DNA of 64,000 bases, taken from a virus. Position numbers and translations under genes: made by a program. Shown piece by piece: positions 20,417 through 26,413 of the stretch (within the stretch, counting starts at the first letter, position 1; every line of letters begins with the position of its first letter). Below the pieces are notes generated by a model. It made no database searches. It was not told the DNA's origin and saw nothing but the letters and a program-made list of their open reading frames with translations. The DNA lies in the IMG/VR virus record IMGVR_UViG_3300022602_004810, positions 1-64,000 of that record; one strand, given 5' to 3'.

Positions 20417-20445
20417 ATTATACAGTCAAAACAACCTTTTGTCAA
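20417..20445 (-). promoter_or_regulatory. Consensus sigma70 promoter
   Basis: TTGACA-17-TATAAT. Confidence 0.85.
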
Positions 20446-20678
20446 CCAAAAAATGCGTTATAAATGCCGATTGAACCAATGGTTAGACTAATAGCATTGA
20501 CCAATGTCTGTGGCCTATTCTTGGTACGTATGCTCCAAGCAAAGAACATACTAGTACCAAAGAAGAACACCACAATGTTCCAAGGATACACACTTGGACC
20601 GATGGCATTCAAACTATGCCCTGCTATGACCAAAGGAGCACCGATCCACTGTAATACATCGTTAGTTTCTAATTTCAT
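20442..20678 (-). CDS. Small membrane protein
   Basis: Three hydrophobic segments; ATG 20678 lies 6 nt after a -10 box. Confidence 0.6.
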   Translation of the reverse strand: MKLETNDVLQWIGAPLVIAGHSLNAIGPSVYPWNIVVFFFGTSMFFAWSIRTKNRPQTLVNAISLTIGSIGIYNAFFG

Positions 20679-20684
20679 AAACAT

Positions 20685-20713
20685 ATTATAGCACCATTTT
20701 ATCAGTTTGTCAA
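20685..20713 (-). promoter_or_regulatory. Consensus sigma70 promoter
   Basis: TTGACA-17-TATAAT. Confidence 0.85.
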
Positions 20714-21001
20714 TGCGTACATCATAACAGCATGGTTCATGGCCTCTTCTGTACGGAAGTAGACAAAACTAGGATCTCTGGATCTAGTATACTTGTAGGC
20801 CCATTCAGCAGTTCGTAAGGTCTGAGCATCATCTTTAAAAAAGAATCTGCGTCCTGCGTCCACACTTGGACCATACATTCTCTCTGCTTGTCCTTTTAAG
20901 GAAAAGTACTTTTTCCAAGCGTGACTTGGGAAGGTTACGCTATATGTGTAACCCCAACGGCTTTTCGCTTTGTAGCGTCCATCTAATTTAGTTATCTTCA
21001 T
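20702..21001 (-). CDS. Small protein related to the plus-strand paralogue family
   Basis: MKITKLDGR shared with 21586..21867; C-terminal VYFRTEEAMNHAVM. Confidence 0.6.
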   Translation of the reverse strand: MKITKLDGRYKAKSRWGYTYSVTFPSHAWKKYFSLKGQAERMYGPSVDAGRRFFFKDDAQTLRTAEWAYKYTRSRDPSFVYFRTEEAMNHAVMMYALTN

Positions 21002-21334: not shown

Positions 21335-21363
21335 TTGACTTTTAGATCCTTTGAATATATAAT
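21335..21363 (+). promoter_or_regulatory. Sigma70 promoter (rightward of a divergent pair)
   Basis: TTGACT-17-TATAAT; ATG 7 nt downstream. Confidence 0.8.
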
Positions 21364-21370
21364 ATATAGT

Positions 21371-21586
21371 ATGAAGATTCTATTAGAACAACAAGGCGGA
21401 CATTTGGCAATGATTGTTGAACACAGTCTAAAGCCTCAATGGGACGCTGTAATTTATGATATAGCCGAAGAGCTTAAAGACCGCAAAGGTGTGCGCCGCA
21501 TGAGCTATGACACTTGGCATTGGGATCTACGTAAACAGCACGAAGCTGAAGAATATATAACTTATTTCTATTTGAAGCATGAATAA
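21371..21586 (+). CDS. Small paralogue-family protein
   Basis: ATG 21371 (the track's TTG start is the -35 box); ends ITYFYLKHE. Confidence 0.6.
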   Translation: MKILLEQQGGHLAMIVEHSLKPQWDAVIYDIAEELKDRKGVRRMSYDTWHWDLRKQHEAEEYITYFYLKHE

Positions 21587-21867
21587 TGGCAATAATACCT
21601 TACAAGACACCTAAGATTACTAAACTTGATGGTCGGTTCAAGTTCTATAACCGCGGCTTTAGGTACAAGGTAAGTTTTGACGCAATGAAAAACTACCAAT
21701 CATTTTTACGAGCATTAACCTGGTGTGAAAATGCCTGGGGTCCAGAACGTAAAGTATGGAATAGTAATTGGCTTGTTACCATAGCTGATAAAAATAAATG
21801 GTGGCGTGAGATCTATTTATGTCGTGAGGAAGATGTTACAATGATGTTATTGGTGGCAGGCGGATGA
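21586..21867 (+). CDS. Small paralogue-family protein
   Basis: TAATG overlap; ends IYLCREEDVTMMLLVAGG. Confidence 0.6.
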   Translation: MAIIPYKTPKITKLDGRFKFYNRGFRYKVSFDAMKNYQSFLRALTWCENAWGPERKVWNSNWLVTIADKNKWWREIYLCREEDVTMMLLVAGG

Positions 21868-22154
21868 CCTCAGGTATTACATACGGAAACGAAATAGATG
21901 GTCCGGTATACTTGGACATTAAGAGCAGTGATCAAGCGGCTCGTATTTTTATTAATTTTATAAGAGATATAGTCGGATATGTGCCCGATGATCCTGTTGT
22001 TGAAATTTCAGAGTACCAACGGGTCAAGGCCGCACTAGTTGAATATAACGCTGTGTATAGATTTAATCAGGCTAAATCAGGATATGTTCGTAAACATTTT
22101 ATACGCTTTGGCCAACCCCGAGACCTAACAGCATTTTTAATGAGATACTCATGA
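21864..22154 (+). CDS. Small paralogue-family protein
   Basis: ATGA overlap; ends IRFGQPRDLTAFLMRYS. Confidence 0.65.
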   Translation: MTSGITYGNEIDGPVYLDIKSSDQAARIFINFIRDIVGYVPDDPVVEISEYQRVKAALVEYNAVYRFNQAKSGYVRKHFIRFGQPRDLTAFLMRYS

Positions 22155-22181
22155 TAACCATAACAATCAAGATTATATATT

Positions 22182-22550
22182 ATGTCTTCACAAAATGATT
22201 ATCTAATTAACCGTCTTAAGAACATCAGTGCCGCGGTTGATGCCGCTAATGACTTATCGGCTACACAAAAAGATGAGTTCTACAAGGATCTGCCTAGACG
22301 TATAGATACTATCCTGGGTGAAGACAATCACCTACACAAATTAAAACAGTTAGCTGATGCTCGCACAGCATGGATGAAAGAATTCATCGATCCCGCCGCA
22401 GACTTCGACTTAAACACTTGGTCATTTGCCAATTGGCTGCGAGATCGTTGGGGTGTTGAACTGATCTACGACAACGAAACGCTTGGCTTGTCAGGATACG
22501 CTGTCGTAGATGCGCAAAAACATTTATTGTTTACTATGGTGTTTCCATAA
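22182..22550 (+). CDS. Small paralogue-family protein (divergent)
   Basis: Ends YAVVDAQKHLLFTMVFP. Confidence 0.55.
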   Translation: MSSQNDYLINRLKNISAAVDAANDLSATQKDEFYKDLPRRIDTILGEDNHLHKLKQLADARTAWMKEFIDPAADFDLNTWSFANWLRDRWGVELIYDNETLGLSGYAVVDAQKHLLFTMVFP

Positions 22551-22765
22551 TGGACCATAGATGCGTACAATTTGTTCCTTTTAAGGTAATACATCGTGCG
22601 GCTTTTGAATTAGATGAACATCGCCGCAGGTATGAAATTTGGCAAGATGAATTTGAACAACACTACAATGTCAAATTCGGTCAGTTACGAGCTGACATAG
22701 ATAGTTACTGTGTAATATTCCCTAGTGATGAAGACTATACTATGTTTATGTTGAGGTGGGCATGA
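22550..22765 (+). CDS. Small paralogue-family protein
   Basis: TAATG overlap; ends VIFPSDEDYTMFMLRWA. Confidence 0.7.
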   Translation: MDHRCVQFVPFKVIHRAAFELDEHRRRYEIWQDEFEQHYNVKFGQLRADIDSYCVIFPSDEDYTMFMLRWA

Positions 22766-22977
22766 AAGTTCCAATACCTGAAATACTATCAGCGTTTCAT
22801 AATGCCAATCAGGCTGTAATTGCCAAAGGCGGATTTGACTTAGAGCGACACCGACATAAAGATGCCTTTGAGCAACTACACAATGTTAAGATTATTCAAA
22901 GTGCATGGGGCAGTTGGGATGAATTGGTTTTCCCTAATAAACAAGCATATACTATGTTCCTATTGAGGTGGAGTTAA
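22762..22977 (+). CDS. Small paralogue-family protein
   Basis: ATG 22762 (ATGA overlap, GAGGTG SD); ends LVFPNKQAYTMFLLRWS. Confidence 0.7.
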   Translation: MKVPIPEILSAFHNANQAVIAKGGFDLERHRHKDAFEQLHNVKIIQSAWGSWDELVFPNKQAYTMFLLRWS

Positions 22978-23210
22978 TGGCATACTATTATAACGGAACA
23001 AGTCATTATATTAAAGTCACAGCCCGTGGTGACTACGATAGGTATCTAACAGCAGTTGCGTTTAAGAACGAAGTTGATGCTTGGTTAGAGGCCCATGAGA
23101 TCAATACTCTTTACGAAGATATGGATTATATCGTCAATGGTAAGTATGAATACCATTTCCTCTGTTTAAAAGAAGAACATGCTACTTTAGCAAAATTGAG
23201 GTGGTCATGA
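22977..23210 (+). CDS. Small paralogue-family protein
   Basis: ATG 22977 (TAATG overlap); ends LCLKEEHATLAKLRWS. Confidence 0.7.
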   Translation: MAYYYNGTSHYIKVTARGDYDRYLTAVAFKNEVDAWLEAHEINTLYEDMDYIVNGKYEYHFLCLKEEHATLAKLRWS

Positions 23211-23410
23211 ATCTAAGGAAAATATCTGGCAGTGATCGTGCTGGCATCTATGTAATAAGCCCTCACGAAGATGTCTACGCAGATGACTATAAAAAATTTA
23301 TCAATTGGTTAGAAGAGCATTGTCCAAATGAATATGAACTAGACCATACCTATTTAACCATCACCGCACATGCCGAGGTACTGTTGGCATTGACTTTTAA
23401 CTTTGTTTAG
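23207..23410 (+). CDS. Small paralogue-family protein (divergent)
   Basis: ATG 23207 (ATGA overlap); INWLEEHCP; ends AEVLLALTFNFV. Confidence 0.6.
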   Translation: MNLRKISGSDRAGIYVISPHEDVYADDYKKFINWLEEHCPNEYELDHTYLTITAHAEVLLALTFNFV

Positions 23411-23418
23411 TGTATAAT
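23390..23418 (+). promoter_or_regulatory. Sigma70 promoter
   Basis: TTGACT-17-TATAAT; ATG 7 nt downstream. Confidence 0.8.
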
Positions 23419-23425
23419 ACAAATT

Positions 23426-24319
23426 ATGAAAATAGCACTGGGTAGTGACCTACACTTAGAATTTGGTGGAATAGAACTTAAAAACACAGAATCAGCTGAC
23501 GTACTTGTACTTGCTGGTGATATCTGTGTGGCCCGTGACATTGAATTAGCTAGTGCTAATATGTATGCTCAACGCAAACGTGCTGAACGTTACTTGGCAT
23601 TCTTTGAACAAGTATCAAAGGAGTTTCCTAAGGTTGTCTACATCATGGGCAATCACGAACACTATCACGGTGACTTCAAATATACCTACGATATACTTAA
23701 AACAGCTTTAGGGCATTTGGAAAACGTCCACGTGTTAGAAAAAGAAACCCTAGTCATTAATGATGTTACTATCATTGGTGCTACTGTCTGGACTGACATG
23801 AATGGTAGTGATCCTACTACCTTGCGTGAAATGCCGCACATGATGAATGACTTCCATGGTGTAGATAATAGTAATAATATGATACAACGCAAAGTTCCGT
23901 TATATCATTATGATGACGAAACTAAGGTTCAAACAGTTACTTCACACAAGTATAAAGACTATCCAAGCAAGTTTAGTCCTAAAGACGCTGTAGAAGATCA
24001 TGATAAGGCCTTGGATTATATTAGCCATGTGGTTGCCGAACGTGCCGAAGAAAAGTTTGTGGTTGTATCACATCACTGTCCAAGTGAGCAGAGTGTACAT
24101 GACAAATACCGGGCAGATACCATTATGAATGGTGGCTTCCGTAGCGACCTAGATGATTTTATTAGTTATCGTCCACAGATTAAACTTTGGTGTCATGGTC
24201 ATACTCATGAAGAATTTGACTATGTTCTAGGTGAAACACGGGTGGTATGTAACCCACGTGGCTATGTAGGACATGAGCCTCGTGCTGGTTATTTCCAACT
24301 AAAATATCTAGAGGTATAA
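23426..24319 (+). CDS. Calcineurin-like metallophosphoesterase
   Basis: SDLH, LAGD, GNHE, HH, HGHTH, NPRGY. Confidence 0.92.
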   Translation: MKIALGSDLHLEFGGIELKNTESADVLVLAGDICVARDIELASANMYAQRKRAERYLAFFEQVSKEFPKVVYIMGNHEHYHGDFKYTYDILKTALGHLENVHVLEKETLVINDVTIIGATVWTDMNGSDPTTLREMPHMMNDFHGVDNSNNMIQRKVPLYHYDDETKVQTVTSHKYKDYPSKFSPKDAVEDHDKALDYISHVVAERAEEKFVVVSHHCPSEQSVHDKYRADTIMNGGFRSDLDDFISYRPQIKLWCHGHTHEEFDYVLGETRVVCNPRGYVGHEPRAGYFQLKYLEV

Positions 24320-24582
24320 TGAAACACACTCTTACCTTGTCAGTTCGTAGTTGGCAAATTCTCCAAGAGCGGATCCTTGTGGACTATGGTCGCGCTACCT
24401 TGCTGATCAGTTGGCGATTAAAGGCTAATCTAGGATTCACTGTGCGCAAGCATACGGACTATGACCAAGATGGTTGGCAAATTACCACCATTCGACTAGA
24501 CTTTTACGATGAACAACTACAGACCTTGTTCTTGTTACGCTACGGCGAGTTTGTTAGCAATTATGAAAATACCCAAGAATAA
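24319..24582 (+). CDS. Small paralogue-family protein
   Basis: LDFYDEQLQTLFLLRYG near the C-terminus. Confidence 0.65.
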   Translation: MKHTLTLSVRSWQILQERILVDYGRATLLISWRLKANLGFTVRKHTDYDQDGWQITTIRLDFYDEQLQTLFLLRYGEFVSNYENTQE

Positions 24583-24877
24583 AGCCCTAGAACAATTACA
24601 CGAAGAAGACATTTGGAGTGATGAGTGGGAAGAATGTGTTTACCGCAGTCAGCAAAATGATTGGAGTGATTATGACGAACACCCATGGGTTTGGTATATG
24701 GAAAAAAGTATACGCATAGGCGAAGGTTGGCATTTAGTTAAGATTAGTCCCGATCACAAAGACGTCACAGTTATCTACTATCTTAAATCAATAGATGCTA
24801 AATTCAAACATAGTAAAAATGAGTTTTTAATAGAAGATCATCAACACGCAATGATGGTAACATTAAAGTATGCGTAG
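24563..24877 (+). CDS. Small paralogue-family protein
   Basis: Probable ATG 24563; ends FLIEDHQHAMMVTLKYA. Confidence 0.6.
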   Translation: MKIPKNKALEQLHEEDIWSDEWEECVYRSQQNDWSDYDEHPWVWYMEKSIRIGEGWHLVKISPDHKDVTVIYYLKSIDAKFKHSKNEFLIEDHQHAMMVTLKYA

Positions 24878-25208
24878 AGTCATGGCCAGGGGAAGACAAG
24901 TGGGTAAATCAACATTAAGTTTAGCAGATCAGATGCTACAACATCAATCACAGTTGATGCAGCGTAGTATTGATCGTATGGTCATGGATGAGATTTGGTC
25001 TTTATACAAATACCGTGTAAGCAAATCATGGACTGATCGTAGGGGCCGCAAGATGCATCGTATAGCTGCCAATGATGAAGTACGCAAATGGTTAGACACA
25101 GAACACAGTCAATACGGTGTAAGTAACCCTGAGTGGTGGAAGTTTGAGAAACAAATTAACATCACTGACAAATTATTCACACTATTGGTCTTAAGGTTTG
25201 CTGAATGA
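24870..25208 (+). CDS. Small paralogue-family protein
   Basis: Ends NITDKLFTLLVLRFAE. Confidence 0.6.
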   Translation: MRRVMARGRQVGKSTLSLADQMLQHQSQLMQRSIDRMVMDEIWSLYKYRVSKSWTDRRGRKMHRIAANDEVRKWLDTEHSQYGVSNPEWWKFEKQINITDKLFTLLVLRFAE

Positions 25209-25414
25209 CTCCGTGGTTATATTTAAATGGTCTAATTAGTTCAGATCGCGCACCAGAGCACAATGAAGTATGGATGACTGCTAAGTTACAGGCTAAGTGG
25301 CCCGGTGATTATACTGTAGTTAAAGATATAGACTACCAATGGCATTATGTTGAATATAAAATGGTATTCGACAATCCCGCAGACGAAACAATGTTTAGGT
25401 TAAAATACGCATGA
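25205..25414 (+). CDS. Small paralogue-family protein
   Basis: ATGA overlap; ends MVFDNPADETMFRLKYA. Confidence 0.7.
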   Translation: MTPWLYLNGLISSDRAPEHNEVWMTAKLQAKWPGDYTVVKDIDYQWHYVEYKMVFDNPADETMFRLKYA

Positions 25415-25689
25415 GAGCGGCACCAGTAGAGCGACAACAAGTAGAACAACGGTTACTCAACGAAGGGTGGCAGGCTGTTCGCATACCCAAAGTGGAAGGT
25501 GATAACACGTGGAGCATTTACAATATGACGACGTGGTGCGAGCATACTCTTGGGCTAGGCAGACCAGAACCAGGCATTATTGGGCTCGGTTTGGGGGATG
25601 TTTGGTATGCGTTTAATTGGTTTGGATATTATAATTTTTACTTTAAACATGCCAAAGATGCCACAGCATTCGCCCTGAGGTGGGCATGA
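25411..25689 (+). CDS. Small paralogue-family protein
   Basis: ATGA overlap; ends FYFKHAKDATAFALRWA. Confidence 0.7.
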   Translation: MRAAPVERQQVEQRLLNEGWQAVRIPKVEGDNTWSIYNMTTWCEHTLGLGRPEPGIIGLGLGDVWYAFNWFGYYNFYFKHAKDATAFALRWA

Positions 25690-25922
25690 GTATATTAGAT
25701 GGCGCTAATGGACGTAAGTTTATAGCATCAGGACCGTTTGATCACGAGATGCCCTATTACTATATAGTAATAGCCGACATTAGTCATTGGATGAAGAATG
25801 AAAAGGCCATATATGCGTGGATGGATGAGAATTTACCCAGAGGTAGACTTCATCAAGAAGGTATGACTCTGGCATTAGAAACAGAAGAACAACTAACAGC
25901 ATTTTTATTAAGGTGGGCATAA
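25686..25922 (+). CDS. Small paralogue-family protein
   Basis: ATG 25686 (ATGA overlap); ends LALETEEQLTAFLLRWA. Confidence 0.7.
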   Translation: MSILDGANGRKFIASGPFDHEMPYYYIVIADISHWMKNEKAIYAWMDENLPRGRLHQEGMTLALETEEQLTAFLLRWA

Positions 25923-26413
25923 TGAAGACAATATTTTTAGACATGGATGGAGTAGTAAGTGACTTTGATGCTTACGCTGAACCACTAGTGGGATTTAGAA
26001 CACCAGGCGGTGTTAGGTATGATCAGGAAGGTTGGGAAAAGATTTCTGCAGAACCTAGATTATATAGTAAGCTAGAAACATGTCCTGGTGCTGATCGATT
26101 GGTAACTACTGTTCAAGATCTAGCAGAAGAATTTGGCTACGATGTTAAGTTTTTAACTGCTATCCCTAGACAAAATGATGTGCCTTGGGCATTTCATGAT
26201 AAAACAGAATGGATCAAAGCACGCTGGCCTAATATCCCTGTATGGTTTGGTCCTTACAGCAATGACAAGCAACAACACTGTCGCCCAGGTGATATTTTAA
26301 TTGACGACCGTCCTAGTAACATCGATGAATGGAATGCCGCAGGTGGTATTGGAATATTACACGTTAATTATAACGTAGATGAAACGCTAGTTAAACTATC
26401 TAGTGTAGTGTAG
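25922..26413 (+). CDS. HAD-family 5'(3')-deoxyribonucleotidase-like protein
   Basis: IFLDMDGV, FLTA, ILIDDRPSN; ATG 25922 in a TAATG overlap. Confidence 0.85.
   Translation: MKTIFLDMDGVVSDFDAYAEPLVGFRTPGGVRYDQEGWEKISAEPRLYSKLETCPGADRLVTTVQDLAEEFGYDVKFLTAIPRQNDVPWAFHDKTEWIKARWPNIPVWFGPYSNDKQQHCRPGDILIDDRPSNIDEWNAAGGIGILHVNYNVDETLVKLSSVV

Follow-up and report, generated by a model that had tools for sequence, protein, structure and literature searches.

A diverged family of small phage genes chained by a joint that probably serves both as protein and as ribosome-binding site

What holds together a run of small genes whose products seem to differ almost everywhere except at their ends? This is the question raised by the plus-strand island at 21371–25922 of the window, the 64-kb stretch of DNA analyzed here, whose source record is a 25%-complete genome fragment. 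The ORF list places in the island 14 small ORFs of 67–122 aa, all with open frames, together with two enzyme genes: that of a metallophosphoesterase, which splits the array, and that of a deoxyribonucleotidase, which comes after the last member. The sequence comparisons lead us to consider it highly probable that the island holds one old and diverged family, whose genes meet at a dual-coding joint and behave as cassettes. That the explanation is right as a whole, with family, joint, cassettes and putative function taken together, seems to us probable with appreciable room for doubt. The putative function itself, a library of early binders for host takeover or counter-defense, is our best guess and stands a little short of an even chance.

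The relatedness of the tails is well founded. All ten tails quoted in an earlier note on this DNA are present at their ORFs, and a permissive tail pattern ([FLM]-x-[LM]-[RK]-[WYF], at most 12 residues from the end) is found in 8 of the 14 island ORFs, against a mean of 0.056 and a maximum of 2 in 5000 residue shuffles. Genome-wide, the same pattern occurs in 13 of 406 ORFs versus 1.31 ± 1.17 in shuffles. The fuller signature of strand and helix (G-x-Y-x-F-x-F ... D-x3-F-x-L-[RK]-W, with its end 0–3 residues from the stop) is present in ten island ORFs. A leave-one-out HMM of the 26-residue tail returned eight of the ten seeds at ranks 1–3 among the 406 ORFs and missed the ORFs at 24509 and 24870. 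The position of the motif is nearly fixed, as 38 of 39 tail-HMM matches in related loci end within one residue of the C-terminus, and 123 of 141 in a larger set end within three. BLASTP within the island yields a single significantly alike pair (the ORFs at 22550 and 22756, E 5e-9), so the family is visible only with profiles.

An external profile was made from 229 database proteins without BLAST similarity to the window; the profile used to retrieve them contained the window's own proteins, hence the comparison is not fully independent. It ranks nine island ORFs as the top nine of 406 (E 5.6e-14 to 0.0088), is borderline for g8 (0.061) and g11 (0.086), and leaves g1, g4 and g12 beyond the threshold. 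A head-only HMM of outside proteins stripped of their tails ranks eight island ORFs among the best 11 of 406 (hypergeometric P 2.8e-11). By these profiles, at least nine of the 14 island ORFs share one family core, and 13 probably do, with g4, g8, g11 and g12 joining the robust nine. The earlier note had given the proteins very different N-termini. They are indeed diverged and their heads only weakly conserved, but they are not unrelated: some 35 residues ahead of the tail they share a conserved Trp helix. Its picture of a constant docking tail on variable heads is not supported in that form: the last strand and helix of a core spanning about 55 residues make up the tail, and the heads are significantly conserved.

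This core begins with a helix in which a Trp, often as Trp-Cys, is near-invariant. A hairpin follows, whose end is a strand of alternating aromatic residues (G-x-Y-x-F-x-F), then an Asp cap and the final helix F-x-L-[RK]-W, which stops one or two residues short of the stop codon. The conserved profile columns (W29, C30, W38, F51, F53, D58, F62, L64, R65 and W66) are spaced alternately in the strands and helically in the helices; from this periodicity only, we infer the order strand-helix-strand-strand-helix. In A2 and A3, the two profiles by which the family is defined here, the helix Trp is W47, present in at least 90% of A2, and the invariant W37 of A3, where C38 follows in at least 90%. Window members mostly carry W-L or W-M here, with W-C in g2 and g14. 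On the profile evidence, the final strand and helix belong to the core and are not a free docking peptide. We found no fusions involving the family.

Two sigma70-like promoters, each with 11 of 12 matches, head two operons, at 21335–21363 and 23390–23418. To this extent the claim that the genes sit behind consensus promoters stands, but promoter-like sites overall are not enriched (27 versus 21.6 ± 4.0 in shuffles), and these two are the only near-consensus plus-strand promoters for 16 genes. Of plus-strand terminator-like sites there are two, inside g6 and g8 and none between genes, with totals no higher than in shuffles. The first ATG of each operon (21371 and 23426) lies 8 nt past the −10 hexamer and the first gene of each looks leaderless, for the first operon because no SD stands between the −10 and the ATG at 21371.

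All genes of both operons are on the plus strand. The first operon begins with g1 (21371–21586, 71 aa), an unproven candidate whose tail, ..TYFYLKHE, resembles the family; its external HMM E is 2, its orthologue group compares to A3 with an hhalign P of 0.06, and it has orthologues in the related loci L002 and L008 (dN/dS 0.26 versus L002). The robust member g2 (21586–21867, 93 aa; external E 2.6e-6, head-only E 0.0096, dN/dS 0.17) has a degenerate end, ..MMLLVAGG. It is followed by g3 (21864–22154, 96 aa; ..FLMRYS; E 0.0088), also robust, with AGA as its tail Arg codon and a 27-nt gap before the next gene. The tail of g4 (22182–22550, 122 aa), ..LLFTMVFP, is decayed; membership is probable, as its orthologue group aligns to A3 with 53 columns in register (hhalign P 0.016) and its L002 orthologue ends in LKF and matches the iterated HMM at 0.0086. 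Three robust members come next: g5 (22550–22765, 71 aa; ..MFMLRWA; E 1.2e-7), g6 (22762–22977, 71 aa from the ATG of the ATGA overlap; ..MFLLRWS; E 1.1e-4; 85% to L002, dN/dS 0.18) and g7 (22977–23210, 77 aa; ..LAKLRWS; E 0.0013; 89% to L002). The operon closes with the probable member g8 (23207–23410, 67 aa), which has a family-like head (head-only E 0.027, rank 3 of 406) and a degenerate tail, and whose last codons contain the −35 TTGACT of the second promoter.

The second operon opens, inside the array, with the calcineurin-like metallophosphoesterase (23426–24319, 297 aa; PF00149 E 4e-11, phrog_1649 E 7e-53), homologues of which occur in 190 GenBank phage records, many above 240 kb. Behind it stand the robust g10 (24319–24582, 87 aa; E 4.3e-4), in which ..LFLLRYG is followed by 11 more residues, and two probable members. 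One is g11 (24563–24877, about 104 aa; ..MVTLKYA), whose start is uncertain (the first in-frame start codon is at 24509), which is missed in the leave-one-out search and which lacks an orthologue in the six closest loci. The other is g12 (24882–25208, 108 aa; ..LVLRFAE; tail Arg codon AGG), with an external E of 8.8, an hhalign P of 0.01 for the Trp helix only and dN/dS of 0.12–0.13. The robust g13 (25205–25414, 69 aa; ..MFRLKYA; E 5.6e-6) precedes the top-scoring g14 (25411–25689, 92 aa; W-C helix; ..AFALRWA; E 5.6e-14, head-only E 0.0021) and the robust g15 (25686–25922, 78 aa; ..AFLLRWA; E 6.3e-5), which is 79–83% to four loci with dN/dS of 0.05–0.09; an Atlas entry begins at its ATG. A 5'(3')-deoxyribonucleotidase of NT5C/HAD type (25922–26413; PF06941 E 1.2e-10, phrog_2643) closes the operon; its gene is missing entirely at the corresponding place in L008 and L009.

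As the earlier note had observed, most genes are joined by ATGA or TAATG overlaps (11 of 15 junctions). At five junctions the Arg-Trp codons of the upstream tail read AGGTGG, a putative SD. In g5 (22754–22759), g7 (23199–23204) and g14 (25678–25683) this hexamer ends 2 nt before the ATG of g6, g8 and g15, respectively; in g6 (22966–22971) and g15 (25911–25916) it ends 5 nt before the ATG of g7, in a TAATG, and of the nucleotidase. The codon choice is strongly biased toward the otherwise rare AGG, nearly the rule where a gene follows directly: AGG encodes 44 of 67 tail arginines versus 38 of 648 other arginines in the same proteins and 5.4% of 14,297 in long ORFs (Fisher P 1.3e-30), and in the window alone 6 of 7 versus 3.3% of 827 elsewhere. 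The bias is tied to the downstream gene, as the next ATG lies 2, 5 or 7 nt past the Trp codon in 41 of 43 AGG tails and in 4 of 22 tails with another Arg codon (P 2.4e-10). From these codon statistics and this geometry, with the next ATG 2–7 nt downstream in 41 of 43 cases, AGG-TGG is very probably the Shine-Dalgarno site of the next gene. The constancy of the tail is accordingly not purely a protein feature, since the AGG-TGG codons impose it in part at the DNA level.

The family extends far beyond the island, with 2,430 clusters at 50% identity (representatives, E ≤ 1e-3, among 1.84 billion proteins). All carriers found are metagenomic phage contigs, mostly of 320–360 kb phages; the largest arrays hold 22 members in 16 kb (a 344-kb phage record) and 17 in 9 kb (a 317-kb record), and one subfamily has two or more members within 16 kb at 42 of 80 loci. 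No cultured carrier was found among the phages searched, and no named relative in Pfam, PHROGs, NCBIfam or the PDB. Nine of ten window members match no Pfam family at E ≤ 1, and among 53 wider members the top Pfam match, DUF2866 at 0.0081, occurs in two. None of the 53 matches PHROGs at 0.01 and no window member below 0.05; the best NCBIfam match is 0.012, and the best PDB values are 0.27 and 0.33. This is apparently a phage-only, unnamed family and among the larger ones of phage 'dark matter': its arrays reach 22 copies, and Pfam, PHROGs and NCBIfam all lack an entry for it.

Comparison of array content between related phages, which the earlier note had proposed, reveals whole genes reordered, gained and lost exactly at the joints. 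The blastn blocks shared with L002, L007 and L008 begin and end at gene ends, in differing order; the block to L008 begins at 24882, the start of g12. In three other lake runs a contig joint links 23210 to 22556, and in two it links 24859 to 25685, a weak observation, as joints at 90% likeness with sides of 21–50 letters are unreliable. Orthologues have dN/dS of 0.05–0.37 where dS is estimable; judged by these ratios, the island holds real genes on which purifying selection acts, and such selection departs from the prediction of a simple residue-level arms race. The proposal that real genes form an expanded family here, in operons driven by sigma70 and coupled in translation, is thus borne out, with dN/dS, overlaps, promoters and the external profile in agreement.

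We propose that two operons read by the host RNA polymerase (sigma70-type) would chain about 14 paralogous mini-genes in a giant freshwater phage, with AGGTGG coupling translation along the chain as Shine-Dalgarno site. The common joint would allow insertion, loss and reordering of whole genes with expression kept. The products may be small early binders, one scaffold with variable surfaces, each aimed at a different host component and expressed along with two nucleotide- or phosphate-hydrolyzing enzymes. A further step, which we regard as rather doubtful, makes the LRW joint a 'plug' that closes off the stable mini-domain, brings in the ribosome, opens the next gene and provides homology for recombination. 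Giant phages could then assemble, reorder and exchange dozens of host-directed binders without promoter, terminator or integrase. If true, the array would be the translation-coupled equivalent of integron cassettes and would hold the place in phages that multigene families hold in large eukaryotic viruses; host range or defense evasion would be set by array content.

Could the tails be alike without common descent? An in-frame SD (AGG TGG) and a stop-start overlap might force Arg-Trp-[Ala/Ser]-stop on proteins with no common fold. The strong AGG bias tied to coupling, the single BLASTP pair and the last residue in ATGA overlaps, Ala (GCA) or Ser (TCA), fit this reading. It is nonetheless extremely improbable, as an SD leaves the conserved strand, the Asp cap, Phe62 and Leu64 unexplained, the Trp is retained beside Lys codons (AAA/AAG in place of Arg, 60 tails), the Trp helix lies 35 residues earlier, tail-stripped heads still match, and the 2,430 clusters align over 50–60 columns. 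The tail is, by its residue pattern, also constrained at the protein level, beyond the DNA signal. Another reading is docking or assembly, the exposed constant final helix binding a common partner or paralogues (as homo- or hetero-oligomers) and the variable rest giving specificity. The last helix is nearly all hydrophobic at profile positions 59–64 and 66, more than one buried face needs, which makes a second interface plausible; the [RK]-aromatic pair is retained in 53 of 125 tails without a coupled downstream gene; and the two-domain proteins P0014, P0038, P0048, P0054 and P0066 indicate that two copies can sit together. We consider docking unlikely, however, as the conserved residues are of the aromatic and aliphatic core type and continue the conserved strand, conservation extends to the head, and DNA-level selection accounts for part of the constancy of the tail.

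The cassettes might instead be neutral or selfish, the joint easing copying and moving, recombination inflating the arrays and most copies mattering little to infection. Close relatives differ in gene order and content, with whole genes present or absent, the tails of g4, g8 and g2 have decayed, and, by analogy, phage T5 is reported to do without 13 of its 17 pre-early genes under laboratory conditions (10.64898/2026.04.02.716235). The orthologue dN/dS values, the 14 open frames and the persistence of the family across phages whose embedded phosphoesterases are only about 50% identical speak against this, and we hold it to be distinctly unlikely. It is quite improbable that the proteins are nucleic-acid-binding regulators, which would, for instance, bind RNA or DNA to set the timing of early expression, and not host proteins. 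In small alpha/beta domains, a basic residue conserved beside an aromatic one often goes with nucleic-acid binding; two members are basic (pI 9.7 and 9.9) and nucleotide-handling enzymes share the array. Yet 10 of the 14 island proteins have a pI below 7, and no known nucleic-acid-binding family matches them.

Our preferred reading, a diverged family in cassettes with a dual-coding joint, resembles several known systems in part. In polycistronic operons, translational coupling uses ATGA or TAATG stop-start overlaps with an SD inside the upstream gene. The island shares the overlap and the SD-like sequence in the upstream coding end; unlike in the textbook case, the SD is tied to an Arg-Trp protein motif repeated through the whole family, which makes the joint a standard module and not a solution for each pair. 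African swine fever virus (ASFV MGF) and the poxviruses have multigene families, or gene 'accordions', of large eukaryotic DNA viruses. There, likewise, one family is amplified in tandem and turns over within a giant viral genome, with a presumed role in host interaction, but with other proteins and hosts; the dual-coding joint is the island's alone. The PeSL (promoter-early stem-loop) cassettes that Arbiol et al. (2010, PMC2839356) describe from hyperplastic regions of T4-type phages are also clustered small, mostly uncharacterized early genes with a short repeated border element, shuffled, gained and lost between close relatives. Their repeated element is a non-coding promoter and terminator between genes (PMC2839356), whereas that of the island is coding, the last codons being the putative SD and overlapping the start of the next gene. 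The island further differs in consisting of paralogues of one family with no inter-gene terminators and only two promoters; a strong sigma70-like promoter with a stem-loop terminator, as in PeSL cassettes, was not found between the island's genes, where 11 of 15 junctions have no spacer. The pre-early (first-step-transfer) genes of T5, a module of the terminal repeat that is transferred first, are reported to form a sigma70-driven early block with many small, uncharacterized genes, most dispensable in the laboratory and several host-toxic; the block also encodes the dNMP phosphatase Dmp and A1, predicted to be a metallophosphatase (10.64898/2026.04.02.716235). The metallophosphoesterase and the NT5C nucleotidase of the island are likened to A1 and Dmp by type only. 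The small T5 genes so described, unlike those of the island, are not one paralogous family, and no T5-like phage is among the 25 listed of the 190 phage records matching the window's phosphoesterase.

The dual-use motif offers a testable rule by which long chains of small genes would stay expressed while genes swap freely, and it advises caution in motif-based reasoning, as part of a 'conserved protein motif' is probably an RNA signal. Should the proteins turn out to be host-takeover or counter-defense binders, such arrays would offer a wealth of small inhibitors built on one scaffold. One further ORF lies outside the island, on the minus strand at 20702–21001. The external HMM does not match it (E 9.5); with an N-terminal stretch of 46 residues like that of g2 (BLASTP E 2e-6) and a family-like end, it is a probable member.

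The plus-strand island lies at 21.3–26.4 kb in a window whose long genes are nearly all on the minus strand. The source record (IMG/VR; 87,067 bp, with the window as its first 64 kb) has a CheckV completeness of 25%, which gives a rough genome size of ~350 kb; complete records of relatives carrying the same family are 317–364 kb. Island DNA is present in metagenome runs from lake water; the runs listed include no RNA data set. With starts placed at the ATG of the stop–start overlaps, a promoter (21335–21363) is followed by g1 (21371–21586), g2 (21586–21867), g3 (21864–22154), g4 (22182–22550), g5 (22550–22765), g6 (22762–22977), g7 (22977–23210) and g8 (23207–23410). A further promoter (23390–23418) leads to a calcineurin-like metallophosphoesterase (23426–24319; PF00149, phrog_1649), g10 (24319–24582), g11 (about 24563–24877), g12 (24882–25208), g13 (25205–25414), g14 (25411–25689), g15 (25686–25922) and an NT5C-type 5'(3')-deoxyribonucleotidase (25922–26413), all on the plus strand.

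The common C-terminal motif, F-x-L-[RK]-[WYF], is far beyond chance. Of the 14 small ORFs in the island, 8 carry a loose form of the pattern where shuffling would give 0.056, and genome-wide the counts are 13 of 406 ORFs and 1.3; the array with a common tail described in the earlier note is thus borne out. A tail HMM of the kind proposed there (here 26 residues, leave-one-out) regained 8 of 10 seeds at rank 1–3 of the genome's 406 ORFs and missed those at 24509 and 24870. BLASTP among the paralogues detects a single pair, g5/g6 (E 5e-9), so the island paralogues are old.

Profile comparisons argue that these proteins, here termed the LRW-tail family, are one family whose likeness extends beyond the tail. 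Among 80 loci collected via the embedded phosphoesterase, the tail HMM matched 38 ORFs in 10 loci, with 38 of 39 matches ending at most one residue from the C-terminus. Aligning members from the window with those from the loci (alignment A2) revealed a second conserved feature, a Trp ~35 residues upstream of the tail. Used as a profile against 1.84 billion proteins, A2 matched 2,430 representatives (E≤1e-3). Among the 150 matches listed, nearly all are 49–165 aa long and match at the C-terminal end; five of those listed carry two family copies per protein. In a 53-member alignment (A3), W37, F66 and F75 are invariant, and C38, D71 and W79 occur in at least 90%. We then scored the genome with a profile of 229 database proteins, each free of BLAST similarity to the window, although not fully independent of it since they came from a search with a window-containing profile. 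The top nine of the 406 ORFs are nine island ORFs: g14 (E 5.6e-14), g5 (1.2e-7), g2 (2.6e-6), g13 (5.6e-6), g15 (6.3e-5), g6 (1.1e-4), g10 (4.3e-4), g7 (1.3e-3) and g3 (8.8e-3). Two are borderline (g8, 0.061; g11, 0.086), and g1, g4 and g12 were not matched. When the last 18 residues were cut off all ORFs, a head-only HMM of outside proteins still placed eight island ORFs in the top 11 (hypergeometric P 2.8e-11), including g14 (E 0.0021), g2 (0.0096) and g8 (0.027). By hhalign against A3, the g4 orthologue group aligns in register across 53 columns (P 0.016) and the g12 group through the Trp helix only (P 0.01); the g1 group gave no convincing alignment (P 0.06). On these three lines of comparison we count nine robust members, four probable and one unproven.

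The pattern of profile columns suggests the order strand-helix-strand-strand-helix. Hydrophobics alternate at positions 11–17, helical spacing surrounds W29-C30 at positions 23–34, and W38 follows; W47-Y49-F51-F53 alternate again, ahead of an Asp58 cap and A59-F62-L64-R65-W66. Two long database proteins were rejected as relatives, P0004 (a helicase) and P0093 (repetitive, 1310 aa), as their repeated matches cover only the short Trp-helix part. In the helicase-like P0004 (1176 aa) a short helix motif, W-C-x-x-N-F-G, recurs seven times and resembles nothing of the family profile but its first helix, which is probably convergence or a common helix motif.

Pfam, PHROGs, NCBIfam and PDB yielded no relative of the family; weak Pfam matches to DUF2866, DUF3110 and DUF7712 were discarded, each being confined to one or two of 53 members. 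Source databases name every member 'hypothetical protein', and ESM Atlas matches (scores 0.88–0.90) are virus clusters of that name only. Island DNA has no match, near or distant, among GenBank phages, nor did tblastn with four members find any there, two of them lacking a match even at E≤1. None of five large cultured phages (Stenotrophomonas CM1, Brevundimonas Gurke, Salmonella 7t3, CcrColossus and Synechococcus MA10) had an A3 profile match at E≤0.1, except for one 12.6-bit stretch interrupted by a stop codon. Brevundimonas phage Gurke and Caulobacter phage CcrColossus, both negative with A3, carry a homologous phosphoesterase whose surroundings, flanked by tRNA clusters, are hypothetical genes of small size along with one for a peptide deformylase. 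Fused forms of 196–2000 aa were not found, which is weak evidence, and one subfamily's pattern met only two loci in 185,579 bacterial and archaeal species genomes, both on MAG contigs. Open-access PMC and bioRxiv, searched for giant-phage small-gene arrays, returned no paper on the family. Its interest lies chiefly in the size of an unnamed family and in a testable rule, that the tail would double as a Shine-Dalgarno (SD) site.

We tested this rule by codon usage in 184 unique family ORFs, taken from the record and from every locus. AGG encodes 44 of 67 tail Arg residues, compared with 38 of 648 Arg residues elsewhere in these proteins (Fisher P 1.3e-30); in ORFs of at least 200 aa, AGG makes up 5.4% of 14,297 Arg codons. 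Within the window, AGG makes up 6 of 7 tail Arg codons and 3.3% of 827 Arg codons elsewhere. We scored the next gene as coupled if an ATG 2, 5 or 7 nt past the Trp codon opens an ORF of at least 40 codons. Such a gene follows 41 of 43 AGG tails versus 4 of the 22 whose Arg has a different codon (P 2.4e-10); after Lys tails the counts are 16/35 (AAA) and 11/25 (AAG). Overlaps of the ATGA or TAATG type, reported in the earlier note, join the genes at 11 of 15 island junctions, and AGGTGG precedes the next ATG at five window junctions (g5/g6, g6/g7, g7/g8, g14/g15 and g15/nucleotidase). AGGUG would pair with the usual 16S 3' end. By this codon evidence, the tail Arg-Trp codons very probably double as the SD of the next gene, which gives the tail a second role at the RNA level. 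Constraint at the protein level is real too, since 53 of 125 tails have no coupled gene and still retain [RK]-aromatic, and 115 of 127 tails have TGG at the Trp position, irrespective of the codon before it. The array reads as a viral multigene family in which a dual-coding joint links each gene to the next. Among known systems, ordinary translational coupling is one of the nearest concepts. Another is the PeSL cassettes of T4-type phages, but these are reported to be promoter–terminator units and non-coding (PMC2839356).

Near-consensus sigma70 promoters (11–12 of 12 matches) occur within 21335–21371 and 23390–23426 and, on the minus strand, within 20713–20678 and 21331–21293; as consensus sigma70 sites they would argue for a proteobacterial host. 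The first ATG follows the -10 hexamer by 8 nt in both plus-strand cases and by 7 or 10 nt on the minus strand, with no SD between, so the leading gene of every early operon looks leaderless; downstream genes, unlike these, look to be translated from the SD that the tail ahead of them encodes. The -35 of the internal promoter, TTGACT, is coded within the final g8 codons (Ala-Leu-Thr) and its -10 hexamer is past the g8 stop; the promoter therefore seems to have taken over a decayed g8 tail.

Array content differs among related phages, a comparison that the earlier note had called for, and so does gene order (loci L002–L004, L007 and L008). Loci L002–L004, with a phosphoesterase 85% identical, have a 10-member array in changed order, with g15, g3, g14, g4, a new gene, g6, g7, g8 and g2 all upstream of the phosphoesterase; L007 and L008 are ordered differently again. 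Blocks of blastn similarity to related loci begin and end at gene ends: 22727–23419 (g6–g8), 23426–24320 (phosphoesterase), 24882–25209 (g12), 25406–25689 (g14) and 25686–25924 (g15). The deoxyribonucleotidase gene, placed between g15 and a converging minus-strand gene, behaves as one exact presence-or-absence unit and is missing from L008 and L009. Short lake-run contigs join 23210 (g7 end) to 22556 (g5 start) in three runs, and 24859 to 25685, skipping g12–g14, in two; these joints lend weak support only, being placed at 90% likeness with short sides. Larger arrays exist, with 22 members in 16 kb (344-kb record) and 17 in 9 kb (317-kb record), and for one subfamily 42 of 80 loci have at least two members within 16 kb. 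That the island is first-injected DNA, as the array near the 'left end' of related records G003 and G004 might imply, was dropped: the G003 terminal repeat is only 99 bp, so these ends are probably an assembly convention.

Homologues of 12 of the 14 small genes occur in the six closest loci, and dN/dS is 0.05–0.37 for island genes with estimable dS (0.12–0.14 for the embedded phosphoesterase). The small genes are real and kept by selection; that such freely reshuffled cassettes are largely neutral is accordingly a reading we hold improbable. Convergence of the tails alone would suit the near-absence of BLASTP similarity, and is very improbable given the head-only matches. The earlier note had read the island as a paralogue array with a constant docking or assembly tail and variable heads; the expanded family stands, while the tail-only likeness does not, as the heads are conserved too and the tail codons very probably act in the RNA as well.

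As to function, members are Trp-rich, look cytoplasmic and have pI values between 4.9 and 9.9; a core is conserved, the remaining sequence is very different, and the genes sit in host-polymerase operons. We tentatively propose small early binders of host components, a library for takeover or counter-defence. A common partner or oligomer held through the tail would fit the protein-level constraint there, and is rather unlikely with codons that probably also serve the RNA. Nucleic-acid-binding regulators would suit the basic members and hardly the acidic ones, and we regard them as quite improbable. The proposed library has an analogue in the T5 pre-early genes, where a predicted metallophosphatase (A1) and Dmp, a phosphatase acting on dNMPs, stand among many small dispensable genes (10.64898/2026.04.02.716235). 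The likeness is analogy only, because the window phosphoesterase, among the matches listed, falls in with enzymes from other large phages.

Outside the island, a minus-strand ORF (20702–21001) flanks the divergent promoter region opposite g2 and shares with it an N-terminal K-I-T-K-L-D-G-R motif (BLASTP E 2e-6); from this N-terminus, it is possibly a further family member. A small membrane-like protein is encoded at 20442–20684 (minus strand; Pfam DUF6552 sub-threshold, E 1.2e-4, with 22.7 bits where the cut-off is 27), with a 12/12 sigma70 promoter with extended -10 upstream. Beyond the window, the minus strand of the record has candidate members at 66774–67049, 67040–67288 and 84633–84830. 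The first two, neighbours with a 10-nt overlap, are weak tail-HMM matches, and the tail pattern is seen in the second and third; the ORF ends in these regions read ..ILKFGA, ..LVLRWP and ..FRLKYADLSN.
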